A stretch of 64,000 nucleotides of DNA, taken from the NCBI GenBank assembly GCA_031520405.1, contig GCA_031520405.1_4842.1; one strand, 5' to 3'. Position numbers and translations under genes: made by a program. Below, piece after piece: positions 8,980 to 27,400 of the stretch (positions are counted from its first letter, which is position 1; the number at the start of each line of letters is the position of its first letter). The stretch is from a phage. Under the pieces are notes generated by a model. The model was given only the letters and a program-made list of their open reading frames with translations. It made no database searches and had not been told where the DNA came from.

Positions 8980-9274
8980 TCGGCGTGATGGAGATTAGCG
9001 CCCCCGACCTCCCCTTATATGTTGGTGTCGACTTGCCAACAGGGTGCTCTCTGATTCTGAGCTAATCACGCTACAACAGGGAGTTTCGTTCTCCGACGGT
9101 CAAGTGCGTCCACTGACACCAGCGAGGTGGCTATTACGCCTCTATTCACACAAGCCCCTGAGACTAGGGGTTAACTGGTTTTGGGCTGCAAACCCGACTC
9201 CCACTGTGTTATTTCCCTCATGTTTAATACTTTACCGCAGCCCAGCTAATTTGAAAAGTCCTCTCCCCTTTGAG

Positions 9275-9421: not shown

Positions 9422-9478
9422 AGTGTTCCCTCCCTTCCATGCAACTAACTTTACTACAATTATTTATTGAATAAAGCG

Positions 9479-10048
9479 TTATTTTAACACTTCTAACTTC
9501 ACAACACGACGCAGAAGGTAAACATATTCGCCAGCAGCTTCATGCGTCATATAATGGGTAGAAGGTGTGGAATGATTGTTCTGGGTTTCTTTTAATCCAA
9601 CACGTTCTGCCCAACCATTAATAGAGTTCCCATAGAAACCGATAATCGCGCCAAAATAAATGCGCTGGCTTTCTGGCTCTAAAACATAGTTGACAGTGAA
9701 GCAAATATCAGAACGAATAGACTCCAGTTTCATACCAACACGACCTTCGGAGAATTCGTTACGAACATATAAATGACGGAAACGATCGCGCCGCGCTTGT
9801 GATGATTCTTCCAATTCTTGTCGGAGTGAAGAAGTTACGTCAATATTAAATGAAAATGTTGGATTCTGTAAATCGGAACGGGCCAACTCTAACGCAGATT
9901 CAACAACGCGACGGAAATTGATACTTTTACCTGTCAGGCGTTTCACTTCATCTGTGATTGTTCCAAAAGGGATTTTCGTGGCGCGTTCCCCTTCGTATTT
10001 TGCCAATAAAGGAATAATGTGTTTCATGATTGCTGTGTTAATGTGCAT
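9479..10048 (-). CDS. hypothetical protein, first gene of the minus-strand unit that runs into the RNA array
   Basis: 189-aa ORF; divergent from the plus-strand structural genes. Confidence 0.6.
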   Translation of the reverse strand: MHINTAIMKHIIPLLAKYEGERATKIPFGTITDEVKRLTGKSINFRRVVESALELARSDLQNPTFSFNIDVTSSLRQELEESSQARRDRFRHLYVRNEFSEGRVGMKLESIRSDICFTVNYVLEPESQRIYFGAIIGFYGNSINGWAERVGLKETQNNHSTPSTHYMTHEAAGEYVYLLRRVVKLEVLK

Positions 10049-10364
10049 TCCGGAGCCTCACCGAATTGATTAAATGTCTCCATTATTATATTGGAGATAC
10101 GTTTATTGAATATAAACACAGGAATGGCCAATAAAATAATGACAGTGATTATTAATAGGTAAAAACTACTTTTCTACAACATCAAGAAACTGTATCTTAA
10201 CGCGGTGCCCTTCGAGTTGTGAGTGTTAACGAACAACGAGAAGCAGCCACCATGGCTGCGGAATGGGACTGCCTGTCAAGGCGGTGTTACGAGCGAGGGC
10301 GTCAGCCCCCTCGCGAGTATATTCGAATAAATTAAACGCGCGCGAGCGTTTTGATTCCCGTTGG

Positions 10365-10372
10365 CTAAATAT
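10365..10372 (+). promoter_or_regulatory. T4-late-promoter-like box CTAAATAT upstream of the baseplate wedge gene
   Basis: matches the recurring CTAAATA(C/T) motif found upstream of many structural genes here; resembles T4 late consensus TATAAATA. Confidence 0.35.
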
Positions 10373-10411
10373 CTTCAACACCATATTCAAACTCAGGTGA
10401 TGGAGATTATC

Positions 10412-12193
10412 ATGGCCACGCAAACAGTTCCTTCACTCGACGTCAGAGCATTTGAATACATTATTAAACAGCGAATGAAAGCTGATCCCACCTTTAAAGA
10501 TTATGACTTTGAAGGTTCTGGTCTTAGTGCGATTATTCGTTTGTTGGCATCTGACGCGAACGCCATAGCCTTTATGCAAAACATGCTTAATGGTGAAGGC
10601 CATTTGAAGACAGCAAATCAACGTTCAAACGTCGGTTTATCTGCTGCATTTCTTTCCTACACGCCTGACAACTATCGGGCAGCATACATGTATGTCAACA
10701 TCAAAGTTACGCCTTATGACGCCAGCACAGCCCCCAATGAGATCATCATGGATCGGCGCGTAATGTTCGTTGGGGCAAAAGACGGCAGTTCCTACAACTT
10801 TACTGTTGAGAAACCAGTGTCAGCAACGTTGACTGCAGACGGTTATTACATGTTCAACAATGTAAAGTTGGTACAGGGGAATTGGTTGTACAAGACATAT
10901 GATGTTGAAGGAAGCGCGATTTCAACATATACGATTCCTTCTGGGAATGTCGATATCAATCATATGGTCGTGCAAGTACAAGAATCAGAGTCTTCCGACG
11001 TTTCGACGACATATCAACGTTACAACAGTCCATTTGATCTGAGCCAATATGCTTACCTGTATTTCGTAGAATTGGGTATTGACGGTCTGTATGTGTTTGA
11101 ATTCGGGGATGGTTATCTTTCGCGTCGAGTAGAAGATGGGAACGTCATATTCCTTCAATACTTGGAAACTTCTGGTGCTGATGGGAATGATATCACAAGC
11201 CTGTCATCAGCGTCATCCATAGGCGGGTTTAACCAGGTCGACGTAGAATTGGTTTCCGAACGTAGCGCAGGTGGAGACGATCCAGAATCTATTGAGGACA
11301 CTAAACGGTTGGCTCCTTTAGCTTATCAGGCTGATGGTGCTGCGGTTACAGAAACAGATTATGGTGTATTGACTGAAAGGTTATTCTCCAACGTCTCCCG
11401 AGCTAAATCATATGGTGGTGACACGCTGTCTCCTCCTGATTCTGGCTATGTTTACATCGCTGTTATACCTTCTGTTGGTGAGACACTTTCGGACGCTGAG
11501 AAGGCCGATATCGTTGCTGCTCTGGACAAGTATAATGTGGGATCTATTACCCCCAAAATAGTAGACTCCGAGATCACATATATCCAAGTCTCAACGACTA
11601 TATTTTGGGATCCTACTTCTACAGTCTACGTTGAAGAACAGATGAAAGTTGTTGTTGGAAACAGTATCGTTAAATGGGGTGAAAATAATCTCGGCGGATT
11701 TGACCAATTGTTTGACAAAGAAATATTGCAGGAAGCAATTACAAAAATGGAACGTTCTATCAACTCGAATATTACTTCAGTTGGTTATAAACGCCATTTC
11801 AAACCTGATTATGGAGTCTTAGACAGTTTCACATTCAGTTATGGACGAAGTATCAAACCTGGTTCTGTGAAAATAACGGGGTTCAAACCGCTTCCTGCCG
11901 AGGTGGATTTCACTTACTACATGCGCGACAATAATGGCGATCTGAACATGTATAAAGTGAATAACAATGACACGACAAAAGAGTTTTTAGTTCAAAAAAC
12001 AGGGGTTGTGGATTATGCAAATGGGGTTGTAGACCTTCAGCAGATCACGGTCTCTAACTATAACCCTGAAGGGGTGACCATAGTCGTGTTACCGGATGGA
12101 CTGAACCAGAACATACAGGCTACACAAAACCAAGTATTCAAGATTGGTGATGTGGTTGTTACGCCAGAGGTGCGCTATGTCCAAAGATCTTAA
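10412..12193 (+). CDS. gp6: baseplate wedge protein, T4 gp6-like
   Basis: about 593 aa from ATG at 10412 (GGAG RBS); size, position ahead of the tail-fibre genes and remembered similarity to T4 gp6; the track's 10361 start lies inside the promoter box. Confidence 0.6.
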   Translation: MATQTVPSLDVRAFEYIIKQRMKADPTFKDYDFEGSGLSAIIRLLASDANAIAFMQNMLNGEGHLKTANQRSNVGLSAAFLSYTPDNYRAAYMYVNIKVTPYDASTAPNEIIMDRRVMFVGAKDGSSYNFTVEKPVSATLTADGYYMFNNVKLVQGNWLYKTYDVEGSAISTYTIPSGNVDINHMVVQVQESESSDVSTTYQRYNSPFDLSQYAYLYFVELGIDGLYVFEFGDGYLSRRVEDGNVIFLQYLETSGADGNDITSLSSASSIGGFNQVDVELVSERSAGGDDPESIEDTKRLAPLAYQADGAAVTETDYGVLTERLFSNVSRAKSYGGDTLSPPDSGYVYIAVIPSVGETLSDAEKADIVAALDKYNVGSITPKIVDSEITYIQVSTTIFWDPTSTVYVEEQMKVVVGNSIVKWGENNLGGFDQLFDKEILQEAITKMERSINSNITSVGYKRHFKPDYGVLDSFTFSYGRSIKPGSVKITGFKPLPAEVDFTYYMRDNNGDLNMYKVNNNDTTKEFLVQKTGVVDYANGVVDLQQITVSNYNPEGVTIVVLPDGLNQNIQATQNQVFKIGDVVVTPEVRYVQRS

Positions 12194-13031
12194 TAATGGA
12201 CACAACGGGGTTAAGTATGAAACTCCGTTGTTCTACCAGAATGATTTCCCTCTGTTCATAGAATTTATGGACACGTTCTTCAATTGGTTGTATAGACAGC
12301 AGGGGTTCACTCAAGAAGAGATCTTGGCATATCTGGCAGATACGTCTAGTTGGATGAATCCCGAGAGTGAAGATTCTCCGGTTAAACAGCTGATTGATTT
12401 AAAGGCTGACAAGACTCCAGGCTCAGAGGCCAAGGATTATTTGTCTGATAAATTCTTGGTTCGTACCTTTGAGAACATGATGGCTCTGGATGCCGAAGAA
12501 CTTTTAGATGCCGACGGAAGGCCGCTATTGTCAATAGAAGATAAGAACAAACAGATAGATGACTGGTATAATGATTTTGGTTTCCAACGAACTGTTGATA
12601 AATCATTTCAAGAATTTGGACATTTTATCCCAGTCGGTTCGGATTCTTTATTGACGGCCACGGGCGATACGTTCTCTGTTTATATCGAAGGAACGAAACG
12701 GAGAACGCTAGATCATCCACGTTGGTTGAAACTGTTAAAACATATCTATAAAATCCGCGGAACCAAGAAAGCAATTGAATTGTTCTTTTGGATATATTTT
12801 GGTTGTCCAGTCAGTGTCTATTTCCCAAAAGAGGAAATAGGCGGTCTGGATGGCAATTTTGAATGTGACGGTATGACAGGGATGCGTGATGACTATTATT
12901 ATGATGAGTACACTTACGTGATAAGAGTCCCAGGCGACGTATCTGATTTCGAAGGCGTATTTGAACGTGTCTTCCGTCAGCATTTCCATCCTGCTGGGTT
13001 TACTGTATTCCTAGAAAGTTCAAGGAGCTAA
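12177..13031 (+). CDS. baseplate-associated structural protein (function uncertain)
   Basis: ORF in the baseplate/fibre block; likely start ATG 12177 overlapping the upstream stop by 17 nt. Confidence 0.5.
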   Translation: MSKDLNNGHNGVKYETPLFYQNDFPLFIEFMDTFFNWLYRQQGFTQEEILAYLADTSSWMNPESEDSPVKQLIDLKADKTPGSEAKDYLSDKFLVRTFENMMALDAEELLDADGRPLLSIEDKNKQIDDWYNDFGFQRTVDKSFQEFGHFIPVGSDSLLTATGDTFSVYIEGTKRRTLDHPRWLKLLKHIYKIRGTKKAIELFFWIYFGCPVSVYFPKEEIGGLDGNFECDGMTGMRDDYYYDEYTYVIRVPGDVSDFEGVFERVFRQHFHPAGFTVFLESSRS

Positions 13032-13033
13032 AA

Positions 13034-14224
13034 ATGGCCGATTTCCTGAGTCAATATACAGGTCAGCAGATAGATCAGATATTGGGTTCTGTTGACGACA
13101 AAGTAAGTAAAAATGACGTTATTAACGATTTTGAAGTTAACGACCCATTGTTTCCACCATCTGCTCGCCTGACATATGAGTTGAAAAGATCTGTTGACAC
13201 AATCAATGATACTCTGGCCAACAAAGTTATTCGTACAGATAGTGGTGAACAAACAATCAATGGCAAAAAGACTTTCAATGCGTTGTTGGTGACCAATGGG
13301 GGCATACAAGTTCCCGCCGGAAAATCCGTTTCAATCACAGATGAACCAACGAACTCGACAGATGGTGTTAACCTGAGCATGTTGAGAAAGCATGGCGTCA
13401 GTGAAGACACTACCCCGCCTGGTTCTGGTTTGGCTGGGGAGTTGTTGACATCCGGATATTACAAATTCAATTTGGACTTCACCAGGTTGTCTGCGTATAC
13501 CGGACCAACGTTGCCGACTTCAGTTCCAGTACAAACAGATTCTGGAGCGCGTTATTGGACAATGACTGCATTTTTTGATGCGTTGTTTGCAGACAACCGA
13601 TTTAATGGATATGTGACAACGACAGCGTATGACGCAGATATGCTGAGTCTAGAATCCCAGATTAATAACATCAACACGTCGTTGAACGGGAAAGTCAACA
13701 CCTCGACTTACAACACTAAGATGGCGTCATTGGATTTGAGTATCTCCAATATCAATACGTCTCTGGGTAATAAAGTCGAGGTCAGCACGTACAACACGAA
13801 GATGGCATCTCTGGATAACAGCATCAGTTCTCTTTCCAGTGATAAAGTTAGTGTATCAACGTATAATGCCAAGATGACCTCTATCGACAATAGTTTGGGG
13901 AACGCCGTTTATCGTACCAAAACGAATTTGTCGTCATACACGGTTTCGGCTTCTGGAACGACGGCTCTTCCAGATTTTGATTTGGTGAACCTTTGTCAAA
14001 TACTGGTAACTGCGCAATGGGGGATAGGTAACGTTGTTGACACATATCGAGTAACCATAACTCGTGACGGAACGATCAAATCAGAGTTGTTAGTTCAGAA
14101 AAGTACGAGTGGTACAGTGACGTTCACAGGGTCTGTGGTGGGCGGTAAATTGAGAATTTCCGTTGTTAATGCGAATACAACAACTGCTTGTTCTGTTGAT
14201 TATTCTATTGCAGCTTCTTTCTAA
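13034..14224 (+). CDS. fibre-like structural protein with tandem 22-aa repeats
   Basis: 396-aa ORF; AAGGAG RBS; three tandem NTSxxNKVxxSTYNTKMASLD repeats. Confidence 0.6.
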   Translation: MADFLSQYTGQQIDQILGSVDDKVSKNDVINDFEVNDPLFPPSARLTYELKRSVDTINDTLANKVIRTDSGEQTINGKKTFNALLVTNGGIQVPAGKSVSITDEPTNSTDGVNLSMLRKHGVSEDTTPPGSGLAGELLTSGYYKFNLDFTRLSAYTGPTLPTSVPVQTDSGARYWTMTAFFDALFADNRFNGYVTTTAYDADMLSLESQINNINTSLNGKVNTSTYNTKMASLDLSISNINTSLGNKVEVSTYNTKMASLDNSISSLSSDKVSVSTYNAKMTSIDNSLGNAVYRTKTNLSSYTVSASGTTALPDFDLVNLCQILVTAQWGIGNVVDTYRVTITRDGTIKSELLVQKSTSGTVTFTGSVVGGKLRISVVNANTTTACSVDYSIAASF

Positions 14225-14226
14225 AA

Positions 14227-14264
14227 CTAAATACCCCTAGATGACATGAATACATTTAGGGGTA
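14227..14264 (+). promoter_or_regulatory. CTAAATAC late-promoter-like box fused to a 5' hairpin (TACCCCTA/TAGGGGTA) ending 6 nt before the ATG
   Basis: read directly; same architecture recurs at 17375, 19433, 30909, 41158 and 47170. Confidence 0.4.
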
Positions 14265-14270
14265 TTACAA

Positions 14271-17200
14271 ATGGCCAACAAACCAACACAGCCTCTTTTC
14301 CCTTTGGGTTTAGAAACTTCTGAGTCTTCGAACATAAAAGGCTTCAACAACTCCGGCACTATTGAGCATTCCCCTGGTGCCGTAATGACATTTCCTGAAG
14401 ATACTGAAGTTACAGGTCTTCCATCTTCTGTGCGTTACAATCCTGATAGTGATGAATTTGAAGGTTATTACGAAAACGGTGGTTGGCTGTCTTTGGGGGG
14501 CGGTGGAATACGCTGGGAAACGCTCCCTCACGCTCCCTCTAGCAATTTGTTAGAAGGTCGTGGCTATCTCATTAATAATACCACAGGGACATCTACAGTG
14601 GTTCTCCCTTCCCCTACGCGTATTGGGGATTCCGTTACTATTTGTGATGCTTATGGGAAATTTGCCACTTACCCATTGACCGTGTCTCCTTCTGGAAATA
14701 ATTTGTATGGTTCCACTGAAGACATGGCTATAACAACTGATAATGTTTCAGCAACGTTCACTTGGTCTGGACCTGAACAAGGTTGGGTTATCACATCCGG
14801 AGTCGGTCTTGGTCAAGGCCGTGTCTACAGTCGTGAAATCTTTACACAAATTTTGGCGTCTGAAACAAGTGCTGTCACTCTCAATACTCCACCAATAATC
14901 GTGGACGTGTATGCTGACGGAAAACGTCTTGCGGAATCCAAATATTCACTAGATGGGAATGTAATCACTTTCAGTCCTTCTTTGTCAGCCAACACAGAAC
15001 TTCAGGTGATTGAATATACTCCTATTCAATTGGGTAATGGCGGTGGTTCTGGTTCTTCTACGATTACTTGGGTCTATAATGGGGGTTCAGCGATTGGCGG
15101 TGAAACCGAAATCACGTTAGACATCGTTGTTGATGATGTTCCGGCCATTGATATAAACGGAAGTCGCCAGTATAAAAATCTGGGGTTCACATTCGATCCA
15201 TTAACCAGTAAAATCACTCTTGCGCAAGAACTGGATGCAGAGGATGAAGTTGTTGTAATTATCAATGGAACGCCAAACATCTATAATCAAATTGATTATA
15301 CTTTGCGGGAAGTGGCTCGTGTAACCAATGTTAAAGATACAGAGGTCATTTATTTTAGTGTTGGTGCTGTGTTAAGCGGGTATAAAGTTATCTATGATAA
15401 AGTAACACAGAGATCATATTTTATTCCAGAGCTACCGACTGGAACCACGGCAGTCAGCCTTAGTTCTTCGGCTGTACTTGTGCATTCTGCTGGTAGTGTT
15501 GATCTGGGCGCATTAGCTGTATCTCGTGAAGAATACGTAACATTGTCTGGGACATTTGATTCTGGTGCTGTCATCAATACTAAAAATGAATTACTCACTC
15601 ACACGGATGGAAAGTATCGTTGGGATGGTACACTTCCTAAAACCGTTGCTCCTGGCTCAACTCCTATTACAACAGGCGGCGTTGGTGTTGGCGCATGGAT
15701 TAGTGTTGGTGATGCTTCATTGAGAAGTGACTTATTAAAAGATGATGGATACACACTTATTCCATCAGTGCAAATTCAGCAATGGAGAGCTGAGGGTGAC
15801 ATTAGAGGGTGGGGGGCTGTAGACGGTGGATTCAATGATTCAGCCATTTTAGCGGCTCTAAACTCTGATTCACCGAGTATAAAGCTCGGCGGAAGAGGAT
15901 TTGTTTCCAAGGTTTCCGATACCATTAACCACAAAAGCAATAAAGTGATACATAGTGGTTCCCTGAATTTTCAGTTTGTTGGAGGAACTCAGCAAGAGAA
16001 ATCCGGGATACTTATGGCTAACATCGCTAATGCCAAAGTGATTGATGTTGATATAACCGGAACCCTGGACGGCGGCATTCGTGGGTACGGTGGAAGCAAT
16101 ATCGTTATTGACGGAGTGAGTGTTCACGACATCGGGGTTTCAGCATTGACTGGCGAGTGCGGCATGGGGATCTGGTTCGGAGACTACGCACACTATGAGA
16201 ATCAAACTGATGGACTATTAATACAAAATTGCCGCATTAACAATATTGGCGGTGTAGGCATCATGCGCGGTGACGGCATTGGTGTTTATAATGCTAAAAA
16301 CTTTACTATCAGAAACAATAACATCACCACTGTAAACAGAATGGGGATATCAGCAGGTAGTGATTGTTTATATTTCAAAATACACGGGAACTATATTGGC
16401 GATATCTTATTGGCAGGTATAGATATAGAACCAGATGCACATTATACCGCTTCAAATTTCAAGATATACAATAACACTATTATTGGTTTTGCCTCTAGAT
16501 TCGTGACTGCGACTGGCGGTGTTGGTCAGCTTTTTGGTATTGATGTACACGCCAACACTTCATACGGTAAAGTTTACAAGAACATACTGTCGGCAGGTCA
16601 GTATGGAACAGAAGCATTCCATATAGGAAATAATGCAGATGAGATTGAGATTACAGATAACGATCTGATAGGCGGTGCTGTTGTAATCCCATTATTCATT
16701 AAGACATATGATGGTAGTGGTAGTAAGCACATCAAAATAAACCGCAACAGGGCAAAGAGAACATGTAAATCATTTGCAGATGTTGCCATGTCTGAAGATG
16801 TTTATATTTCTGAAAATGTATTCTCTGGAAATAGTTCTGCTGATAGCTTTTTCTTAAGGCTATCGACAATATCTGGGCTTAATGTTGACTATAACCGGTC
16901 CAGTGATACAACAAACTTCATTAAGGCATTTGACGCTGGAAACACATCAAGTATGAAGGTCACTAATAATAATGCATACACTCTTTCAGATGGTATAGAC
17001 ATACTAACTTCTGGTCCACTGGCTGAATTTATTGCTTCTGGAAACACTATTTTATGCCCAGCATCCAACAAAGGAATTTCACTGGAAGTAACAGGTTCAG
17101 GTTCTATTTCTAATATTAGGCTCCGTGGCAACATAATTTATAATGCCACAACTAAAATATATGTATCACCTGCTGCCACTGGATGGGATATGTTAACCAA

Positions 17201-17306
17201 AAATAGCAGGTATGATCTGTCTGGAGTCGCAAATGGCACTCAGCTATTCGAACTATCAAGGAATAGAGTTACTCAATTTTTAAACGGAACATGGTATGAT
17301 GGTTAA
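14271..17306 (+). CDS. tailspike protein 1 (1011 aa) with N-terminal anchor modules and beta-helix-like repeats
   Basis: shares a conserved block (VxYFSVG..SGYKVIYD..YRWDG..GAWxSVGDxSLRxDL) with the two tailspikes at 17415 and 22293; NxxITTVNRMGISAG-type parallel beta-helix repeats. Confidence 0.75.
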   Translation: MANKPTQPLFPLGLETSESSNIKGFNNSGTIEHSPGAVMTFPEDTEVTGLPSSVRYNPDSDEFEGYYENGGWLSLGGGGIRWETLPHAPSSNLLEGRGYLINNTTGTSTVVLPSPTRIGDSVTICDAYGKFATYPLTVSPSGNNLYGSTEDMAITTDNVSATFTWSGPEQGWVITSGVGLGQGRVYSREIFTQILASETSAVTLNTPPIIVDVYADGKRLAESKYSLDGNVITFSPSLSANTELQVIEYTPIQLGNGGGSGSSTITWVYNGGSAIGGETEITLDIVVDDVPAIDINGSRQYKNLGFTFDPLTSKITLAQELDAEDEVVVIINGTPNIYNQIDYTLREVARVTNVKDTEVIYFSVGAVLSGYKVIYDKVTQRSYFIPELPTGTTAVSLSSSAVLVHSAGSVDLGALAVSREEYVTLSGTFDSGAVINTKNELLTHTDGKYRWDGTLPKTVAPGSTPITTGGVGVGAWISVGDASLRSDLLKDDGYTLIPSVQIQQWRAEGDIRGWGAVDGGFNDSAILAALNSDSPSIKLGGRGFVSKVSDTINHKSNKVIHSGSLNFQFVGGTQQEKSGILMANIANAKVIDVDITGTLDGGIRGYGGSNIVIDGVSVHDIGVSALTGECGMGIWFGDYAHYENQTDGLLIQNCRINNIGGVGIMRGDGIGVYNAKNFTIRNNNITTVNRMGISAGSDCLYFKIHGNYIGDILLAGIDIEPDAHYTASNFKIYNNTIIGFASRFVTATGGVGQLFGIDVHANTSYGKVYKNILSAGQYGTEAFHIGNNADEIEITDNDLIGGAVVIPLFIKTYDGSGSKHIKINRNRAKRTCKSFADVAMSEDVYISENVFSGNSSADSFFLRLSTISGLNVDYNRSSDTTNFIKAFDAGNTSSMKVTNNNAYTLSDGIDILTSGPLAEFIASGNTILCPASNKGISLEVTGSGSISNIRLRGNIIYNATTKIYVSPAATGWDMLTKNSRYDLSGVANGTQLFELSRNRVTQFLNGTWYDG

Positions 17307-17317
17307 GTTATTTAAAA

Positions 17318-17341
17318 ACCCCGCTTCGGCGGGGTTCTTAT
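17318..17341 (+). terminator. intrinsic terminator (UUCG tetraloop)
   Basis: ACCCCGC-TTCG-GCGGGGT followed by TCTTATTAT. Confidence 0.65.
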
Positions 17342-17382
17342 TATACCTTTGTTCATAAATTTTATTAGTTCAGACTAAATAC
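17325..17382. repeat. direct repeat copy 1 (about 58 bp, identical to 19383-19440)
   Basis: identical string spanning terminator 3' half through the CTAAATAC box. Confidence 0.9.
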
Positions 17383-17409
17383 TCCATATTGGTCATCCTT
17401 TATGGAGTA
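17375..17409 (+). promoter_or_regulatory. CTAAATAC box plus 5' hairpin TACTCCATA/TATGGAGTA upstream of tailspike 2
   Basis: 9-bp stem, 12-nt loop; 3' arm contains the GGAG RBS; ATG at 17415. Confidence 0.4.
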
Positions 17410-17414
17410 TTATC

Positions 17415-19328
17415 ATGATTTCTCAATTCAATCAACCACGCGGCTCCACTTCCATAGAAGTTAACAAACAATCTATCGCTCGAAATTTCGGTGTCAAAGA
17501 AGACGAAGTCATTTATTTCACTGTCGGTATTGATCTCAGCGGATTTAAAGTAATTTATGATGAGTCTACCCAACGGGCTTATTCTCTTCCTTCGGGTATT
17601 GTTTCAGGAACGATTGCGATAAGTCTGAACGAACAAGCCATCCTTACTCATTCTTCTGGCTCTGTTGACCTTGGGGAATTAGCAGTAAGCCGCGAAGAAT
17701 ATGTGACTTTACCTGGTTCTTTTAATTTCGGTCATACCATTAATGTGAAAAATGAACTTCTTGTTCACGATGATAAAAAATATCGATGGGATGGTTCTTT
17801 GCCAAAGGTAGTTGCCGCTGGTTCTACACCCGATAACTCAGGCGGTGTTGGTTTAGGTGCATGGTTGAGTGTTGGTGATGTATCATTGAGAGCGGATTTG
17901 GCTAGTGGCACACTTGGTAAAGGTGCGAATCTTTTGACATATAAGTCACAAGTATCAAACTCGGTTGCTATAAGCCAACAAATTAAAAATAGTGAAAGGG
18001 TTTCTGTTTTTGAGTATTTGGCTAAGCCTATTCCTGGTTTTGATAATGCATCAGCATTCGCTGCTATGAAAGCTGATGCTGAAGCAGGTGTTGTAATAAC
18101 AGTACCTTCAGGAGTATATGAAACATCTGAACCACTGAGATTCACAAAACCTGTTCAAATATGGTTTGATGTAGGAGTGCGAATAAAACTTACATCTGGT
18201 GCACATGACCATGTTGTGGAAATAGATTTACGTGGACAAGATGAGGGGTATTGGGGGTATAAACCTTTCTTTGGTGGTGGCAGGGTTATTCTTGATGGTC
18301 TTGGTCATGCTAAGTACGGGCTATCACTTCGTGGCGTAATATCTGGTGGTTTTCCTGGTATTCAAGCAACCAATATAACAACTGCTGGGTTATATCTGGC
18401 TTGGACTCAATGCTGTACATACACTGATTTTATTTGCTCTAATAACGTGGAGGTTTTCACAACAAAACCCCTGCACGGTATTTTAGTAGATAAAGATAAC
18501 AATCCGTCAAATCCACGTGGTACATCATGCGATATCTTTATTAACCCATGTGTAGAGCACACTGCGGGTGATGGGTTTGTAGGACTAAGCCTGATGAACT
18601 CAATGGTTATAAACGGAACAATCGAGGGAAACCTTGGCGCAGGCATTTCATTGGGGCATCCTACAGATAATACTTACACTGCACTGGGTAATACATTTCT
18701 TGGTATTGACCTTGAGGTGAACACGCTAACTGATATTGTGATTAACAAGTTTTCACACATGAACGAGTTCATAGGACTCAAATCAGGTTATTCATCTCCA
18801 TCAGTTCAGGTCAGAGGTTTTCGTAACTATTTCTCTGGAGGTACTGTTAGCGATTTCGACTTCAGGCCAGATAGCCATGACAACCACGTACAGGATGTAA
18901 CACTTTTAGCTGAGTTTCCTGTTGTTAATGATGAAGGGATAAGAAACACTTATGAAAGATTATGGAATCTTAACAATGCTCAAGTTAACGTAAGCACAAA
19001 CCCTGTTAACACAAGAAGCAATCAGCCTATAGCGGGAGGTGAGACAGTAACGTTAGACCCATATAAAGCATCCTATGTTGTATGCACCGCAACAGGAACA
19101 CCTATTAATATAGTTTCTGCCACCAAAAAATTAGATGGAGCAAGAATAGATTTGACAATTCACAATGCATCAGGAACAGATTCATTAGTCATTAACTGGG
19201 CATCAGATATTAGAGTTGGCAATTTTACTCCTCCACCAGCAGGTAAACATAAGGGGTTATCACTAAGATATGATGCTAATTACGGTTATTGGACTGTAGT
19301 TGGTGTTGGACTGGACGCTTTATCGTGA
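17415..19328 (+). CDS. tailspike protein 2 (637 aa)
   Basis: N-terminal anchor block shared with the tailspikes at 14271 and 22293; Gly/Asn-rich beta-helix-like C-terminal region. Confidence 0.75.
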   Translation: MISQFNQPRGSTSIEVNKQSIARNFGVKEDEVIYFTVGIDLSGFKVIYDESTQRAYSLPSGIVSGTIAISLNEQAILTHSSGSVDLGELAVSREEYVTLPGSFNFGHTINVKNELLVHDDKKYRWDGSLPKVVAAGSTPDNSGGVGLGAWLSVGDVSLRADLASGTLGKGANLLTYKSQVSNSVAISQQIKNSERVSVFEYLAKPIPGFDNASAFAAMKADAEAGVVITVPSGVYETSEPLRFTKPVQIWFDVGVRIKLTSGAHDHVVEIDLRGQDEGYWGYKPFFGGGRVILDGLGHAKYGLSLRGVISGGFPGIQATNITTAGLYLAWTQCCTYTDFICSNNVEVFTTKPLHGILVDKDNNPSNPRGTSCDIFINPCVEHTAGDGFVGLSLMNSMVINGTIEGNLGAGISLGHPTDNTYTALGNTFLGIDLEVNTLTDIVINKFSHMNEFIGLKSGYSSPSVQVRGFRNYFSGGTVSDFDFRPDSHDNHVQDVTLLAEFPVVNDEGIRNTYERLWNLNNAQVNVSTNPVNTRSNQPIAGGETVTLDPYKASYVVCTATGTPINIVSATKKLDGARIDLTIHNASGTDSLVINWASDIRVGNFTPPPAGKHKGLSLRYDANYGYWTVVGVGLDALS

Positions 19329-19373
19329 CATCACCAACATTATAAAATGATGTTGTTGCTGTTAAAATTTAAA

Positions 19374-19400
19374 TAACCCCTCTTCGGCGGGGTTCTTATT
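19374..19400 (+). terminator. intrinsic terminator (UUCG tetraloop, one stem mismatch)
   Basis: ACCCCTC-TTCG-GCGGGGT followed by TCTTATT. Confidence 0.55.
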
Positions 19401-19440
19401 ATACCTTTGTTCATAAATTTTATTAGTTCAGACTAAATAC
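19383..19440. repeat. direct repeat copy 2 (identical to 17325-17382)
   Basis: identical string. Confidence 0.9.
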
Positions 19441-19468
19441 CCCATATTGGCAAATCCTTTATGGGGTA
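19433..19468 (+). promoter_or_regulatory. CTAAATAC box plus 5' hairpin TACCCCATA/TATGGGGTA upstream of tailspike 3
   Basis: differs from the 17380 copy by a compensatory T-to-C / A-to-G pair that preserves the stem. Confidence 0.45.
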
Positions 19469-19475
19469 TTTTCAA

Positions 19476-22241
19476 ATGACCAGAAATGTAGAAGAATTAT
19501 TCGGCGGCGTAATCACAGCTCCTCACCAGATTCCTTTCACGTATAAATCAAATGTCGGTGGAGAAACTTTCCTTTCTTTGCCGTTCCATCCCGTCACTGG
19601 TGTTATCACAATCAACGGTGGTATGCAAGTTCCGTTAGACAACTTTGAAATCGAAGGAAATACGTTGAATCTCGGGCGCGCATTGTCCAAAGGCGATGTT
19701 GTGTATTGCTTATTCGATAAAATTCTTTCGCCAGAAGATACAGCCAAAGGTATCCGCATATACAAATTTCAGGCCGTGGGAGGTGAAACCGAGTTCACTC
19801 CTGATTTCACATCCTATGGTGTCCAATCTCTTTATATCGGTGGCGAGTACAAAACACCCGAAATTGAATATTCCTATAACAGCACGACAGGGAAAGTGTC
19901 TTTGCAAACTGCACTGACTGCAGGCGTTTGGGTAGTCGCTGAAATGTCTGTTAAACAACCGAATATCAGTCCGGCGTTTGACCGAAGTATTCAAGAAATC
20001 GCCCGTTCTGCTAATGTAAAAGACTCTGAAGTCATCGTTAGTACGGACACCATATCTTTGTTGGATGGGAAGAAAGTTGTTTATGATATAGCGACGCAAA
20101 CCAGTTATGGTTTACCAACCATTCCTGATGGTTCTGTCATTTCTTCTGTATCTGCTGGGAAATTGAATTACAACCCAGGTGATGTGCAGGTTGATTTGTT
20201 GCCTTTAGAAGATTCATTTATTAATGTGATAAACACTCTGGGGCGCAATGATGGTGCCAAGTATATTGGAGAATGCCATTCTGTTGCTGATCTCAGGAAT
20301 ACTGAACCCACTATGGATGGACAACGCATTATTCTTAAGCAACACACTGCGGGTACTCTTCTTGGTGGAGGGGTATTCCGTGCGTTAATTGATGGTACAG
20401 GAAAGACTGATAATAACGGTACTGTGATCAAAACTGTTGGCGGCGCGGCATGGTTACGTGTTAATGCTGATAGAGTTAACCCATTCATGTTTGGTGCTTT
20501 GGGTGGTTCTAATGATGATACTATTCCAGTACAATCTTGTGTGGATAGTGGTAAGGCCACACAATTAACTGATGCACATTACGTTAGCAATATCCAGTTA
20601 AAATATAATACGTCGTCTATTTATGGGTCTGGATTACATTACTCAAGGTTGCATCAGTTGCCTTCTGCTACTGGGAATTGTATTACCATAAAAGATACAT
20701 GCTCCCTTATTGTATTAGACGCCTTTGGGGTATATGGCACAGGTGCACAACAAGGCATGCCATTTACTGCGGGCACAACAGGTATCTATGTAGAAACTCC
20801 TTCAGGTCTCTCAGCCGATTATCCGTTCCACACTACCGCAGACCCAAGACGCGACTTGTGTATTTCTAAGGTCCATATAGCAGGTTTTGATGAATATGGG
20901 TTAAATATTGATAGTGGTAACTTTAGTGTTACTACAGATTCTCTTTTAGTCAACCACATCAATCAGGTGGGTGTCCGTTGTGCTACTACTGATTGGACTT
21001 GGACAAATATCCAGGTTAATACCTGCGGTAAACAATGTCTGGTTCTTGATGGTTGTGGTAATGGTCGTATTATTGGCGGTAAATTCATTTGGGCTAACTG
21101 GCAACCTTATGGTACAGTAGGACAGTTCCCAGGCATTACTATTAATAACAGCCAGAATATGGTTATTAATGGTATTGAGGTACAAGATTGTGGCGGGAAT
21201 GGCATTGAGATTAGCGATTCATATTCAATTTCCATGAACGGATTGAACACCAATCGTAACGGCATCAATGCTAACAACACTTTCTACAACATCGTATTTA
21301 ACAAAAGCGATGCAGTTATCAACGGATTCGTAGGACTCAATTATGCCGCGAATAGTGGTTCAGGTGCTAACTCTAGTGCAGGCAATTTTCAGTTCCTGTC
21401 TAATGATTGTAGTGTCACCATTAATGGTGTGGTTGAGACTGGTTATATGGGCATTAACTTTATTGGTGATAACAATATTATCAACCCCACCAATTCCGAC
21501 CTGAGCATTAACGGATTGGTTAATTATTCCAAGACTGGTTTGCAAACCATGAACGAGACCCCTACATTTGATGGTGTTAGCACTACACCTGTTTATGTAA
21601 GTGTCCCATCTTCTGTAGGGCAAGTAAATGGTCTGAGACTATCACAAGCCAACAAAGATAAATTACTGTATTCAAGAACAGCAGGTCCAGAAGGTATTAC
21701 CATGGCTGCTGTTGTAGTACCCACCATATCTGGAGCTGAAGTATTTAACTTCATGGCCATTGGTTCAGGGTTTAGTGATACATCCAACAGTCTTCATCTT
21801 CAATTAGTTATAGACGCTTCTGGAAAACAAACAATTGCTTTGCTATTGGGGGGCGATGGTACAACCCAAATTTTATCTGGGGATTTACCTAACGACCTTA
21901 AACTACAAAGTGGTGTACCATATCATATAGCTATTGGTGCTAAACCTGGATATTTCTGGTGGAGTATTCTTAATATTCAGACGGGTAAGAGAATCAGACG
22001 GTCATTCCGAGGCGCTTATTTAGCCGTACCATTTAATTCTATATTCGGATTAACTTCTTCATTAACATTCTTCTCGGATAGCAATGCTGGTGGGGATGCT
22101 TGTTCTGGGGTTGGTGCTAAAGTGTATGTTGGTATGTTCTCTTCTGAGAACGATTATGTAGCTTCACGATACTACAACCTGATTAATCCTGTAGACCCTA
22201 CTAAGTTAATTAGTTACCGTATATTGGATTCTTCTATTTAA
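19476..22241 (+). CDS. tailspike protein 3 (about 921 aa)
   Basis: start placed at ATG 19476, 7 nt after the hairpin as in the paralogs; carries a more divergent anchor block (NVKDSEVIV...KVVYDIATQTSYGLP) and a beta-helix-like region. Confidence 0.7.
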   Translation: MTRNVEELFGGVITAPHQIPFTYKSNVGGETFLSLPFHPVTGVITINGGMQVPLDNFEIEGNTLNLGRALSKGDVVYCLFDKILSPEDTAKGIRIYKFQAVGGETEFTPDFTSYGVQSLYIGGEYKTPEIEYSYNSTTGKVSLQTALTAGVWVVAEMSVKQPNISPAFDRSIQEIARSANVKDSEVIVSTDTISLLDGKKVVYDIATQTSYGLPTIPDGSVISSVSAGKLNYNPGDVQVDLLPLEDSFINVINTLGRNDGAKYIGECHSVADLRNTEPTMDGQRIILKQHTAGTLLGGGVFRALIDGTGKTDNNGTVIKTVGGAAWLRVNADRVNPFMFGALGGSNDDTIPVQSCVDSGKATQLTDAHYVSNIQLKYNTSSIYGSGLHYSRLHQLPSATGNCITIKDTCSLIVLDAFGVYGTGAQQGMPFTAGTTGIYVETPSGLSADYPFHTTADPRRDLCISKVHIAGFDEYGLNIDSGNFSVTTDSLLVNHINQVGVRCATTDWTWTNIQVNTCGKQCLVLDGCGNGRIIGGKFIWANWQPYGTVGQFPGITINNSQNMVINGIEVQDCGGNGIEISDSYSISMNGLNTNRNGINANNTFYNIVFNKSDAVINGFVGLNYAANSGSGANSSAGNFQFLSNDCSVTINGVVETGYMGINFIGDNNIINPTNSDLSINGLVNYSKTGLQTMNETPTFDGVSTTPVYVSVPSSVGQVNGLRLSQANKDKLLYSRTAGPEGITMAAVVVPTISGAEVFNFMAIGSGFSDTSNSLHLQLVIDASGKQTIALLLGGDGTTQILSGDLPNDLKLQSGVPYHIAIGAKPGYFWWSILNIQTGKRIRRSFRGAYLAVPFNSIFGLTSSLTFFSDSNAGGDACSGVGAKVYVGMFSSENDYVASRYYNLINPVDPTKLISYRILDSSI

Positions 22242-22245
22242 AAAT

Positions 22246-22272
22246 ATACCCCTCTTCGGAGGGGTCTTTACT
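22246..22272 (+). terminator. intrinsic terminator (UUCG tetraloop)
   Basis: ACCCCTC-TTCG-GAGGGGT followed by CTTTACT. Confidence 0.6.
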
Positions 22273-22292
22273 AGAAAAACAATGAGGTACTT

Positions 22293-24338
22293 ATGAACGA
22301 AATGTTTAGTCAAGGTGGTAAAGGTTCGACTGGAATCTTAACCAATAAACAAGCAGTAGCCAGACACTTTGGTGTTAAACAATCTGAGGTTGTTTATGCC
22401 AAATCAGGACAGTCCTTGTCTGGTTATAAAGTGATCTACGATAAGGTATCTCAACGTGCCTACGCTCTCCCTTCTAACATTGGTACTGTAACGGTCACTA
22501 GTTTAGTCGACGGCATTCTCACGCACTCTGGAGGCACCGTAGATTTGGGTGCATTGGCTGTGTTAAGGGAAGAGTATGTTACTCTTGTTGAAAATTTTAC
22601 TTCTGGATTTACGATTCGTGTCAAGAACGAAGTCGTGAGCGATGGGGTGAGTCTATATCGTTGGGATGGTGCTTTACCTAAAACCGTTGCACCTGGCTCA
22701 ACACCTGAAACAACTGGTGGCGTTGGTTTAGGTGCATGGTTGAGTGTTGGTGATGCCACATTAAGAAGTGAATTAACATTGAATGTTTCAGATATTAATG
22801 GATTGATTAACGTTAATACAAGAAACAAAAATTTCATGTATGTTACATCATCGTTTCGAGGGGGTGGAGGTGCTGGTGTATATGTATGGAATCCCACAAA
22901 AAATAAATCATTACATAACGGAGCGACTATCATAGACCCATCAAGGACTCTACCGATAAACTGGGATTCTCAGTCGCAAATAGATGATTGGTTTACAATT
23001 TCATCCACAGATGGGGTGGGATGTTTTGAATTAATTGAGGGGGAGAGCTCGGTTAATCCATTGCAGTGGGGCTGCTTGGGCGATTCATCAAAAGACAACC
23101 CACATAGTGGGTATGATAACTCTTTAATATCTGATTATGTTGATGACTACGCTGAATCAGTAAATAAAACAGTATTTTGGCCTCACGGTATATTTAGATT
23201 CACTGGTCCACAGCAAAGAAAGACAAGGCATGATGGACATGAATACATTAGAATGAATAGTGAGTTTTCTACTGTTTTTATTATTGACAATCAGACGCCA
23301 ATAACTTTTCTAAAAGGAAAAGGGATTGGGACCGACCATCAGAAACTGTATGCCCACGGTTCAAGAGGAATAGAATATATTGGCAACCCTAAACGAATCC
23401 ATACTCTTCTTGATGCATACATGTACACGACATCATGGAAGCATTTTGCTGTTCGTGGATTTAAATATGGATTTGATATAAATTTTGTCTCTTTCCATAT
23501 TCAGAATTTCTATTTTACTGATAATGAAATTGGAATTTACCCAAAACCACTAATGCCGCCATTGCAAGCTGCCGCACCAAGTACAATGCTATCATTATCT
23601 TACGGTGCATTTGATTTCAGTAAGAATGGAATAGTATTCACTGAGAGATTTGGGCTTGGCGAGGCAGAAAACGTCATAAACGTAAATCTATCTTCTGTTG
23701 TGTTCGAACAAAATGAATTTGACGGATTCAGTTGTGCTAACTATCCATTACCTGTCGGTGTGAAAAACGCCAACAACAGGGTTATGAACCTTACAGTAAA
23801 TAATTGCTGGGCTGAACTTAACGGTAGAGCTGGTTTCAACTTCGAGAACGCTGACGTAACTGCGAATTCATTGAGAATAAATGAAGCGGATGAATTGATT
23901 TATCCAGCAGGGGCAAGGACATACTCTATTGATGTAAATGGTGTAAGGGAAACAAACGTACTAAAATCGTCACTTTATGGAGCGCATAATATAGAAGCTC
24001 CGGTATCTGGTCAAATGATAATAAAACCAGATGGTAGCATTTATTCTGGTGCGACAATGCCTTTTACTGTTACAAAGACATCGGAAGGTCAATTTAAATT
24101 AACGAATGCATCATCTACTCAGGGGTTTCAATACGTATCAATAGAGGTTATGCCATTCGATAGAGCAAGGATTGATACTGTTGTGACATGTGACCCATCA
24201 GATGTCGCAGCGTTCGTTCAGTTTGGTACAATATCAAGCTATAAGATTGAATTTACATCGAGAGGCACATCTACATTTGTAACTCCAGAGGCTGGTTTCG
24301 CAGTTAAATTCTCATGGGTTCACCCTCTTAATAATTAA
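22293..24338 (+). CDS. tailspike protein 4 (681 aa)
   Basis: N-terminal anchor block nearly identical to tailspike 1 (LYRWDGALPKTVAPGSTPETTGGVGLGAWLSVGD). Confidence 0.75.
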   Translation: MNEMFSQGGKGSTGILTNKQAVARHFGVKQSEVVYAKSGQSLSGYKVIYDKVSQRAYALPSNIGTVTVTSLVDGILTHSGGTVDLGALAVLREEYVTLVENFTSGFTIRVKNEVVSDGVSLYRWDGALPKTVAPGSTPETTGGVGLGAWLSVGDATLRSELTLNVSDINGLINVNTRNKNFMYVTSSFRGGGGAGVYVWNPTKNKSLHNGATIIDPSRTLPINWDSQSQIDDWFTISSTDGVGCFELIEGESSVNPLQWGCLGDSSKDNPHSGYDNSLISDYVDDYAESVNKTVFWPHGIFRFTGPQQRKTRHDGHEYIRMNSEFSTVFIIDNQTPITFLKGKGIGTDHQKLYAHGSRGIEYIGNPKRIHTLLDAYMYTTSWKHFAVRGFKYGFDINFVSFHIQNFYFTDNEIGIYPKPLMPPLQAAAPSTMLSLSYGAFDFSKNGIVFTERFGLGEAENVINVNLSSVVFEQNEFDGFSCANYPLPVGVKNANNRVMNLTVNNCWAELNGRAGFNFENADVTANSLRINEADELIYPAGARTYSIDVNGVRETNVLKSSLYGAHNIEAPVSGQMIIKPDGSIYSGATMPFTVTKTSEGQFKLTNASSTQGFQYVSIEVMPFDRARIDTVVTCDPSDVAAFVQFGTISSYKIEFTSRGTSTFVTPEAGFAVKFSWVHPLNN

Positions 24339-24343
24339 TATAA

Positions 24344-24370
24344 AAACCCCGCTAATGCGGGGTTTTATTT
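24344..24370 (+). terminator. intrinsic terminator
   Basis: CCCCGC-TAAT-GCGGGG followed by TTTTATTT. Confidence 0.65.
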
Positions 24371-24392
24371 CTATCTGTTTGTTGGCTGTATA

Positions 24393-24400
24393 CTAAATAT
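24393..24400 (+). promoter_or_regulatory. CTAAATAT late-promoter-like box
   Basis: motif match about 33 nt upstream of the ATG at 24433. Confidence 0.3.
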
Positions 24401-24432
24401 CTCTATAAAATGGCACTCGATGGAGCATCAAA

Positions 24433-27400
24433 ATGCAATCTACAAATTTAAACCGTCGCCCGTATTGGGATGACTGGAATCCTGGGAAACGTTTTTCACG
24501 GATTCTTTTTCGTCCGATGCCTATCAAGGTTCAGACTCGCGAACTGAACCAGATGCAGACTATTCTTCAGGATCAAATTGAAAAACTGGGCAACCATTTG
24601 TTCAAAGATGGTTCTATGGTTATCCCTGGCGGTCTGACGATCACTAACGCCGCAGTCTCTTTGAAATTCACTTTGGCGGGTGGTACTGAATTCACTGATC
24701 TGGAAGGTATTTCTGAACTCTACGTTTTGGGGAAAGACAATAACGCCAAAGCGCGTGTGCTGTCTCTTGAACGTGATCTGTCTGCTCCTGATACAATGCT
24801 GGCTATCCTTGAGATGACTGAAGCGGGTAATGCTGACGGATTCCATGTTAACGATAATCTGTATTTCCAGACTTACGACGTGAATGATAATTTCATTCGT
24901 ATTGGTTATGGTATCGCAGCTGCAGTGACTGGTTCTATCGTCGCTCGTATGACGAAAGGCGTTTACTTCATTCGTGGGATGTTCCTAGACGTTGATGACG
25001 CAACTCTTATCGTTGACAAAACTTCTAACATCACTTCCCACCGCATCGGATTTAAAGTCACCGAAACCATTGTCACTGAAACAGAAGATGAATCCCTTTA
25101 TTCAAATGCTCAGGGAACGATTAACTCCAAAGCCCCAGGCGCTCATCGTCTTCGAATAGATCTGGTCTTATCTCGATTTGATTATGATGCTGTGGTTGAA
25201 GACTTTGTTGAACTGGCCAAAGTTCGTGATGGTAAAATCCAGTCTATGGTGACTCAGTCCACCTATAATATTCTGGAAGACACGTTGGCCCAACGGACGT
25301 ATGAAACCAACGGCGATTACAACGTTTCGACCCATCAGATCGATATCCGTGAACACCTGAAAGTCAATAACAATGGCGGGGTATTCGGTGCTGCTGATGG
25401 CGGTGACGAAAGTAAATTCGTGTCTGTAATGAAACCAGGTATTTCCTATGTTCGTGGTCGCCGTATCGAAAACGTCGGGGAAGAGTTGGTGATCGTTGAT
25501 AAGGCGCGGGATACCGATGTCCTGAATAACACCCCTGTTGCGGTGGCCACAGGCAATTATCTGGTCACCAAGAATTCTAAAGGTGTGCCAGTGATATCCC
25601 GCACCGTTCGATACAAATTACTGAATGCTTCAGGCGTTACCCAGGCTACAGCACTTTGTATATCAGCTGAACGTAATTCAACAGAATTTCGTCTGTATAT
25701 GCGCGACCTGGTCGTTACTGGCGATGCATCCACTATCACCAAAGTGTCTTACGAAGAAAGCGGTATCACCATGTTCTCTGCTGAACTGGAATCCAATCAG
25801 TTTAACCAGAGTTCTATGATAGATCTGATCTTCTCTCTTCCGGTATTCGGTGTCAAGACTTTAGCACCAACTGGCTCCGTGGATATCAACTACACTGTTC
25901 TCAGAACGTATAAAGTGACGCTAGACAGCAGTGGTTCTGGTTCTATTTCAGCCCCGCTGGGATATAGTTTTTCCCCAGAATTTTCGTTATACTCTGCAGC
26001 GAAATCTGATGGTTCTGAAGCGCAGTTCGATATCTCTGGTTCTTTGTCTTTGACTGGTTCTCCGGTCGGTTCGGCGCTGCAGATTTCTCTGGGCAGTGGT
26101 AATGCTAACCAGTCAATCAATTTGCTGGCGCTGATGATTCGTACCACGGCCACAATCAAAACGAAGACCATCACTGAAACAACTGAAACAGTGACGTTCA
26201 CCTCGCAGACTAGCCGCCCTTTGGCGAATCACGATGGTTGGAAATTGGTGTCGGTCAAAAACGATACTGGCGCAGACGTGACCTCCAGCTTCGTCCTAGA
26301 TGGCGGACAGCGTGATGCAGGGTATTACAAGTCTAACTTGTTATCCAGCGCTGGAGCAATCTCAGGGACGTATACAGTGGTGTATCAATACTTCGCCCAC
26401 AGTTCCGGTGATTTCTTCTCTGCTGATTCGTATACTTCGATGGATTATAAAGATATCCCGAATTATACATCTTCTACATCAGGCGCGGTGTACGGCCTGG
26501 CAGATAGTTTGGATTTCCGTCCGAAAATCACCAACGGAACTTCTGACACAGATATGGTTCGTCCAAACACTGCAGTTATTCTGGACACAGAATATTATCT
26601 GCCGCGTATTGACGCGATTTATCTGGCAGACAACGGTGTGTTTGGTGTGGCTCGAGGCATTAGTTCTAATAATCTGGCTTCTCCAGCAATCCCAGCGAAC
26701 GCCATGCGTTTGTATGAATTGTTGATCCCGCCGTATACACCGAATATTGATGATATCCAAATTCGAACTATTGATAATCGTCGTTATACGATGCGCGATA
26801 TCGGTAAACTGGAAACCCGTATTTCCAATGTTGAATACTATACCTCTCTGTCACAGCTGGAATCTTCAGCGATGACACAGCAAGTGTTTGACCCCATTAC
26901 GGGTAATCCTCGTTTCAAAAATGGTATTGCAGCTGATCCGTTCAAAGACTTCCGGTTGATTGATGACTTGTCTGAAGATTGGATGGGTTCTATCGATACC
27001 GAAAACGGACGTCTGCGCCCGTTTGTACAACAAAACGTTGTTGACATGACTCCGGTTGGCTGGAACAAAGTGATGGATGGGATGGTGGTTTGTAATTACA
27101 CGCCTGAAATCTCGGTGAACCAAGAATATGCGACGACGACGATCAACGTTAACCCGTATGCAGTATTCAATTGGGAAGGTTTCTTGAAGATTAACCCGAC
27201 CACAGACTACTGGTTCGAAAACTATTATGTTTCACCGCGTATTATCAATGAAACGATCAACACCCGTGGTACTGTACAAGAAGGTTCAGTGTATGGAACA
27301 TGGCGTACTGTTTCTGTTTCTGATCGTGTTTGGGAACCGCATGGTGCTGGTGGTGTGTGGTGGGGATATCGTTACCGCACGACTGTTTCTGCCCGTGATG

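Follow-up and report, generated by a model that had tools for sequence, protein, structure and literature searches.

Why does a phage genome carry two identical non-coding sequences on either side of a single tailspike gene? The question is raised by a stretch of phage DNA of 64,000 nucleotides (nt; GenBank assembly GCA_031520405.1, contig GCA_031520405.1_4842.1), referred to at its full length as the window, which belongs to a CBA120-like Kuttervirus of the Ackermannviridae. The region 12000-26000 of the window is matched by 291 phage records, with vB_EcoM_JN03 as the nearest relative (98.8% identity over 88% of the region). Collinearity with CBA120 gives the tailspike gene order tsp4, tsp3, tsp2 and tsp1 on the plus strand, with copy 1 of the repeat in the intergenic region between tsp4 and tsp3 (IG4-3) and copy 2 in that between tsp3 and tsp2 (IG3-2). 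A preliminary description had seen in the repeat above all homology for the exchange, duplication or deletion of receptor-binding genes. We find that the primary role of the repeat sequence is probably regulatory; the explanation that we favour with good confidence is that the copies are paralogous regulatory cassettes which owe their identity to conservation, their role in exchange being a by-product.

The identity of 58 base pairs noted initially (17325-17382 and 19383-19440) is confirmed, the exact run being one base longer, with 59 nt (17324-17382 = 19382-19440). It ends at 17382 because the next base of copy 1, 17383, is a T instead of the C of all relatives examined, and it is embedded in a wider similarity of 82 nt at 95% (17311-17392 and 19369-19450), past which the similarity reaches, with an indel of 1 nt in a loop, the start codons at 17415 and 19476. 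The 59-nt repeat is the core of two homologous intergenic modules of approximately 100 nt each. It is far beyond chance, with two exact occurrences of its 38-nt spacer in the window versus none in 100 shuffles, and no other near-exact direct repeat in the 64 kb reaches its length. The bracketed gene, introduced as 'tailspike gene 2', is indeed the second in map order, but by orthology it is TSP3, as its first 162 amino acids are 94% identical to CBA120 ORF212 (TSP3), its best solved-structure matches are PDB 6NW9 and 5W6F, and a Tail_spike_N domain is present.

Both modules show the same order of elements, an intrinsic terminator hairpin, an AT-rich spacer of 38 nt, a late-type box CTAAATAcCcc, a hairpin in the 5' untranslated region (5'-UTR) and the ATG:

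17317-17336, plus strand: copy 1 terminator hairpin AACCCCGC-TTCG-GCGGGGTT, then a U-rich tract
17337-17374, plus strand: copy 1 AT-rich spacer, 38 nt, CTTATTATACCTTTGTTCATAAATTTTATTAGTTCAGA
17375-17385, plus strand: copy 1 late-type promoter box CTAAATACTCC, a variant of CTAAATAcCcc, by match to the family motif
17378-17411, plus strand: copy 1 5'-UTR hairpin, 5' arm overlapping the box, 3' arm holding the Shine-Dalgarno sequence GGAG
19375-19394, plus strand: copy 2 terminator hairpin, then a U-rich tract
19395-19432, plus strand: copy 2 spacer, 38 nt, identical to copy 1
19433-19443, plus strand: copy 2 late-type promoter box CTAAATACCCC, by match to the family motif
19436-19470, plus strand: copy 2 5'-UTR hairpin with a loop of the CAAAT type, 3' arm holding the Shine-Dalgarno sequence GGGG

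Hairpin and fold analysis agrees with what the preliminary description had assigned to the repeat, namely the 3' half of a terminator, a spacer and a CTAAATAC box. As in rho-independent terminators, a GC-rich stem-loop with a U-tract stands at the 3' end of a gene in both copies, and homologous hairpins carry a terminator annotation in phage Mutine. The copy 1 terminator has 8 pairs (-15.7 kcal/mol, z -3.95) followed by CTTATTAT; that of copy 2 is weaker (-9.3 kcal/mol, z -1.84) because of a T-C mismatch caused by T at 19381, which is G in copy 1 and in JN03. Both boxes fit the pattern CTAAATAC(C/T)CC, and since a consensus scan found no sigma-70-like promoter in 17307-17414 or 19329-19475, the late-type box is the sole promoter-like element of the cassette. 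CTAAATAcCcc has been given as a regulatory motif of Ackermannviridae (PMC7283392), and homologues of the T4 late-transcription proteins gp55, gp33 and gp45 have been reported for CBA120, ViI and AG3 (PMC3184105, PMC3121705).

The 5'-UTR hairpin folds with -17.5 kcal/mol (z -6.24) in copy 1, where GGAG occupies 17404-17407, and -16.6 kcal/mol in copy 2, where GGGG occupies 19463-19466. Its 5' arm AATACyCCATA, which begins in the box, is paired with the 3' arm TATGGrGTATT, so that the C-run of the box pairs with the Shine-Dalgarno sequence 7-9 nt upstream of the ATG. In copy 1, U at 17383 and A at 17406 form a pair through a compensatory double change of what is C-G in every relative examined, which argues that the UTR hairpin is under selection. 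The start 19461 given for tsp2 in the list of open reading frames (ORFs) is an in-frame ATG within the 3' arm of the copy 2 UTR hairpin; the true start is 19476.

As core of two paralogous composite expression cassettes before tsp3 and tsp2, the repeat would act as follows. The GC-rich hairpin and its U-tract would end the upstream transcript, the predicted promoter activity of the CTAAATAcCcc box would re-initiate transcription beyond the 38-nt spacer, the UTR hairpin would keep read-through transcripts untranslated, and box-initiated transcripts, which would be devoid of the 5' arm, would be translated. The last two of these effects, a putative translational gating, follow the analogy of the T4 genes e, soc and 49, in which the late promoter reportedly lies in a hairpin that sequesters the ribosome-binding site. 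Common to these genes and the cassette are the overlap of the late -10-like box with the 5' arm and the location of the Shine-Dalgarno sequence in the 3' arm; should the transcription start be situated, as in T4, about 6 nt after the TATAAATA box, the 5' arm would be missing from late transcripts. In contrast to T4, where a few late genes have it, the design recurs here at many, and a terminator precedes it.

That the two copies are identical can mostly be attributed to the conservation of an old duplication. Copy 1 as query retrieved 322 records with 536 places, mostly two per Kuttervirus genome, and both copies are present in nearly all Kuttervirus and Agtrevirus genomes, where they hold the same positions around a bracketed gene which is a tailspike gene. 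At 14 loci compared in detail, box and hairpin are almost invariant, with the loop TCAT or ACAT before tsp3 and CAAAT before tsp2. Even the Agtrevirus phages AV101 and PC3, members of another subfamily, possess the full module at both positions, and between them and the window the spacer is 95-97% identical, compared with 76-80% for the first 300 nt of tsp2 and, for AV101 only, 66% for the gene upstream of tsp4 (13034-14224). Both copies are thus better conserved than the flanking coding DNA, wherefore the 59-nt identity is to be ascribed mainly to conservation rather than to anything recent. That it stems chiefly from recombination is not borne out by this conservation across two subfamilies, and recombination is not needed as an explanation. 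No shared derived variants indicative of concerted evolution or gene conversion between the copies were found within the genomes examined; the copies group by position and not by genome. Neither do they have the characteristics of a site-specific recombination site or of a transposon target duplication, for which an adjacent integrase or transposase and a variable position would be expected.

This conservation would also suit a repeat that is purely regulatory, its identity maintained by purifying selection on promoter, terminator and UTR and without any part in rearrangement, as hardly any variation is seen in promoter box and UTR hairpin among all relatives, the spacer surpasses coding DNA in conservation across subfamilies, and a signal of within-genome homogenisation is missing, with copies grouping by position. 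The borders of receptor-module exchange, located by blastn of the window against 14 relatives, speak against such an exclusive role. They are listed here together with the genes of the cluster:

14271-17306, plus strand: tsp4 (CBA120 ORF213 position), N-terminus conserved
15483-15725, plus strand: TD1 / Tail_spike_N coding repeat in tsp4, 5' border of variable receptor-binding modules
15714-15748: homology stops, end of TD1 in tsp4
17312-17319: homology resumes, in most comparisons, at the 5' edge of the terminator
17375 / 19427: homology resumes at the box in genomes without the terminator
17415-19328, plus strand: tsp3 (CBA120 ORF212 orthologue by its N-terminus), the gene between the two repeats
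17649-17891, plus strand: TD1 coding repeat in tsp3
17880-17899: homology stops, end of TD1 in tsp3
19372-19377: homology resumes, in most comparisons, at the 5' edge of the terminator
19476-22241, plus strand: tsp2 (CBA120 ORF211 orthologue), start as annotated in CBA120 and other relatives
22293-24338, plus strand: tsp1, by collinearity with CBA120
24334-24365: homology resumes, in most comparisons, at the 5' edge of the terminator
24343-24366, plus strand: terminator after tsp1, of the same hairpin family, 3' border of tsp1 module swaps
from 24433, plus strand: VriC gene, by collinearity with CBA120

The swap that distinguishes the window from JN03 is confined to the tsp4 receptor module, bounded by 15714 and 17314, with 99.2% identity over 17314-26000. 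The C-terminal receptor-binding module of tsp4 is common only to STP55 and to two unrelated phages of other families, ECGD1 (Justusliebigvirus) and ECO111 5-P; that of tsp3 is shared with JN03 only. In ECGD1 (4100-4200) and ECO111 5-P (1225-1265) the tsp4 module together with the terminator hairpin (window 17304-17344) is 82-84% identical, the similarity running through the hairpin and ending directly after it, which identifies the mobile unit as 'end of TD1 to terminator'. Judged from these alignments, spacer and box represent the resident landing side of module exchange. The cassette would then provide the fixed 3' homology arm for receptor-module exchange and the TD1 coding repeat, which in tsp4 (243 nt) is 70% identical to 17649-17891 and 67% identical to 22524-22766, the 5' arm. 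The idea of the repeat as homology for exchange stands insofar as module borders fall at the terminator edge (17312-17319, 19372-19377) and the JN03 swap ends there. Beyond the hairpin, the ECGD1 sequence is similar to the intergenic region between tsp2 and tsp1 of Kuttervirus and to the beginning of tsp1. In ECML-4 (8377-9032), a CBA120-type tsp3 is followed by approximately 650 nt that have been kept, including an ORF of 276 nt and the 3' end of a Vi01-type tsp3, a remnant which shows that a module swap need not end at the cassette.

Two direct copies could, in addition, cross over with each other. The signature of such an event is found in FEC14, a phage with four tailspike genes whose tsp3 carries the CBA120 tsp4-type (O78) module; the cassette after this module is on its left CBA120 IG4-3, including its 12-nt gap, and on its right of IG3-2 type. 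The same chimeric cassette is present in PhaxI, so that a joint is inferred in ATAAATTTTATT, corresponding to window 17355-17366, inside the repeat. FEC14 tsp4 carries in turn the CBA120 tsp1-type module, with the 3' joint within the terminator hairpin. LHE287, an Agtrevirus-like phage with three tailspike genes, has one hybrid cassette, in which IG4-3 markers (loop ACATCC, ccTTtatg) are followed by the IG3-2 markers tatCTTCAAatg, making it a candidate for the loss of tsp3 by crossing over within the 3' hairpin arm. Crossovers between the paralogous positions, presumably by homologous recombination, have happened in relatives (FEC14/PhaxI and, as a candidate, LHE287), but rarely. The terminator after the O78 module reads CCTCGCC-AAAA-GCGGGGGG in PhaxI (6365-6395) and FEC14 (9165-9195) and CCCCCGC-TTTT-GGCGGGGG in CBA120 (6390-6412); the PhaxI/FEC14 version is 'flipped', which looks like an inversion of the hairpin top.

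An initial reading of PhaxI as a clean repeat-mediated deletion of tsp3, suggested by a 58-nt BLAST overlap with CBA120, was rejected after comparison with FEC14. Over 4600-6460, PhaxI matches FEC14 tsp3 at 99.7-100% identity, and the switch in PhaxI from tsp4-type to tsp3-type sequence falls within TD1 (PhaxI 4458-4701); FEC14 has the appearance of the parental type of PhaxI, with four genes. These type switches were mapped on pairwise profiles, as a three-way MAFFT profile with a non-homologous module proved misleading. In ST2 the fusion interval is 4482-4714. The crossover claim of the preliminary description accordingly holds for the FEC14/PhaxI chimera and the LHE287 hybrid and fails for the losses in PhaxI and ST2, which proceeded via TD1. 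For repeat-mediated duplication, the sole tandem case does not help: STP07 (KY000003) 7709-12051 equals the conspecific GG32 plus a perfect tandem duplication of 2,172 base pairs comprising tsp3, with ends in both cassettes, yet the middle cassette is devoid of the 39-nt spacer (junction GCGGGG|ACTAAATACCCC), and the duplication is therefore not a simple unequal crossover product. The only other difference from GG32 is an IG4-3 spacer carrying the IG3-2 variant, and STP07 has, with 79 nt, the longest identical run between cassettes. The duplication may be a complex real event or an assembly artefact.

A purely regulatory repeat is, with these data, unlikely. Although PhaxI and ST2 used the TD1 repeat instead, module borders fall at the terminator edge in most comparisons, the FEC14/PhaxI chimera and the LHE287 hybrid require crossovers between the two positions, and terminator and spacer are dispensable in Vi01-type genomes, so that near-identity is not explained by need alone.

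Several observations weigh against paralogous regulatory cassettes with a by-product role in exchange. Vi01 lacks terminator and spacer in both intergenic regions, and Sa157lw, ECML-4 and AR2819 lack them in IG4-3, so that these elements are dispensable for tsp expression; in the four genomes the stop codon directly adjoins the box. The terminator of copy 2 is weakened, as its z of -1.84 indicates. With respect to exchange, LHE287 is the only candidate for a gene loss between the two intergenic regions, PhaxI and ST2, both with three tailspikes, are in-frame tsp4::tsp3 fusions via the TD1 repeat of approximately 243 nt, the STP07 duplication junction is non-homologous, and no rearrangement was seen in the window phage itself. 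The fusions occurred where the exact runs between tsp4 and tsp3 coding sequence, at 13 nt only in the window, fall far short of the 59 nt between the intergenic copies; presumably a fusion keeps a useful receptor module, whereas a deletion between the intergenic regions merely loses one.

Hybrid junctions were also sought more widely. Approximately 175 records contain the tsp3 N-terminus and 172 the tsp2 N-terminus. A 34-nt deletion-type hybrid had no match in GenBank phages, and the duplication-type hybrid retrieved there canonical IG4-3 at 92-95% only, none at 100%. Exact hybrid junction patterns gave no hit in IMG/VR, a collection holding only 6-8 kuttervirus contigs, and metagenome scans gave no hybrid junction and one canonical match; as kutterviruses are almost lacking from those collections, these two nulls say little. 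Tailspike gene content does vary among relatives, in agreement with the initial expectation.

Could spacer and terminator, in a late-gene version of the PeSLs (promoter-early stem-loop cassettes) of T4-type phages, be maintained as a portable landing pad, from which whole tailspike genes or receptor modules are excised, possibly as circles, and re-inserted across slots and Ackermannviridae subfamilies, and even from unrelated phages sharing the terminator hairpin? We regard this as rather improbable; if true, the 59-nt run would make tsp3 measurably unstable in lysates. Still less credible is the reading that selection or gene flow keeps the sequence of the repeat, above all the spacer, alike because the repeat is, like a PeSL but for late genes, a mobile module of recombination with which whole tailspike genes are cut out and inserted, possibly via circles. 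PeSLs (Arbiol et al. 2010, PMC2839356; Comeau et al. 2014, PMC4122927) are composites of promoter and terminator, approximately 100 base pairs in size, on either side of variable genes, and an exchange leaves one chimeric cassette behind (PMC2839356); the architecture and the pattern 'flanked gene versus single chimeric cassette' fit that model (PMC2839356). Moreover, no regulatory need that would explain the conservation of the spacer is obvious, the 59-nt run is the best homology flanking tsp3 compared with 13 nt for tsp4/tsp3 coding sequence, and STP07, with the longest run (79 nt), is the sole genome with a tsp3 duplication. However, just two full copies exist per genome, always at the same positions, there is one candidate deletion among approximately 170 genomes, no hybrid junctions beyond LHE287 were found in GenBank phages, IMG/VR and metagenomes, and the STP07 junction is not homologous.

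Hardly any weight can be given to a recent gene conversion or intergenic duplication in this lineage at the acquisition of the tsp4 or tsp3 module: although the exact run is among the longest compared (59 nt versus 18-52 nt in most) and the IG3-2 loop of the window is TTCG as in IG4-3, where JN03 and most relatives have TTTG, the shared run besides that loop base is the ancestral consensus at both positions in many phages including Agtrevirus, STP55 with the same tsp4 module has the same IG4-3, and one base change makes no conversion tract.

The conserved regulatory cassette itself is not a new kind of element, and its closest analogue is the PeSL, here as a late-promoter variant. Both are intergenic sequences of approximately 100 base pairs which combine a promoter with a terminator stem-loop and have a Shine-Dalgarno sequence and the start codon as their last elements; both occur on the flanks of variable genes, in both a flanked gene of one phage corresponds to one chimeric cassette in relatives, and both supply their own transcription signals to whatever gets swapped in. 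On the other hand, a late-type box takes the place of the sigma-70 early promoter, a defining feature of PeSLs, and only two full copies are present in the 64 kb, at fixed tailspike positions where they adjoin the most variable genes, compared with about 50 copies in hyperplastic regions. The cassette belongs to another phage family, the Ackermannviridae, and the formation of encapsidated mini-circles by recombination between neighbouring cassettes is a feature of PeSLs.

For the tailspike cluster, exchange of receptor-binding domains at conserved N-termini and TD1 has been described (Sorensen et al. 2021, PMC8432352; 2024, PMC11414711), and recombination within the tsp cluster takes place in the laboratory, readily at repeated coding domains (PMC11414711). 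The same cluster and the same module exchange are concerned here, and the 5' zone at the end of TD1 is confirmed. In contrast to the present findings, that model attributes exchange to coding N-termini and cluster-flanking genes and not to intergenic cassettes; the word 'intergenic' is absent from PMC8432352, PMC11414711 and a 2024 review, and no mention of the cassette or of intergenic repeats was found in the tailspike-cluster papers searched. Neither the location of the 3' border at the terminator-promoter cassette nor the occurrence of chimeric cassettes is described in PMC8432352 and PMC11414711.

These borders are of practical relevance, as Ackermannviridae phages are engineered for detection and biocontrol by tailspike swaps. 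The natural 3' border of a swappable module, the terminator edge of the cassette, provides a design rule for homology arms, and extra copies of a tsp promoter region, being direct repeats, may make constructs unstable. PhaxI and ST2, with their three tailspikes, find an explanation as TD1-mediated gene fusions.

The design of the cassette extends beyond the tailspike genes. The CTAAATAC box has 7 matches in the window versus 1.7 expected, located upstream of the gp6-like gene, tsp4, tsp3, tsp2, VriC and further genes, and box plus anti-Shine-Dalgarno hairpin are found, with differing sequences, at at least 7 late-gene starts. Such box-hairpin sites are at 2510 on the minus strand and at 10365, 14227, 17375, 19433, 30909, 47170 and 50347 on the plus strand; at these sites the Shine-Dalgarno region just ahead of the start codon is paired with the bases that directly follow CTAA (ATAcCcc...). 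The arms vary from site to site (ACCTTCA/TGAGGGT, ACCCCC/GGGGGT, ACTCCATA/TATGGAGT), with z of -3 to -7.8, the automatic choice of start codons having shortened some UTR folds in this window-wide survey. The 'cCcc' of the family late motif may therefore, from its pairing, be an anti-Shine-Dalgarno arm, a role of which no mention was found in the papers searched; it suggests a simple rule for how late genes may be kept silent before the late promoter fires.

Terminators related to those of the cassettes are located in the window at 22248, 24343 and 37110. The one after tsp1 is followed by a degenerate spacer and the box CTAAATATCTC at 24393. The tsp2-tsp1 intergenic region (22248-22292) contains a hairpin ACCCCTCTTCGGAGGGGT and has neither a CTAAATA box nor a clear U-tract, for which reason tsp1 is probably co-transcribed with tsp2. 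A further copy of the CCCCGCTTCGGCGGGG terminator hairpin is situated at 37097-37141, outside the tailspike cluster, and this hairpin sequence is thus reused genome-wide.

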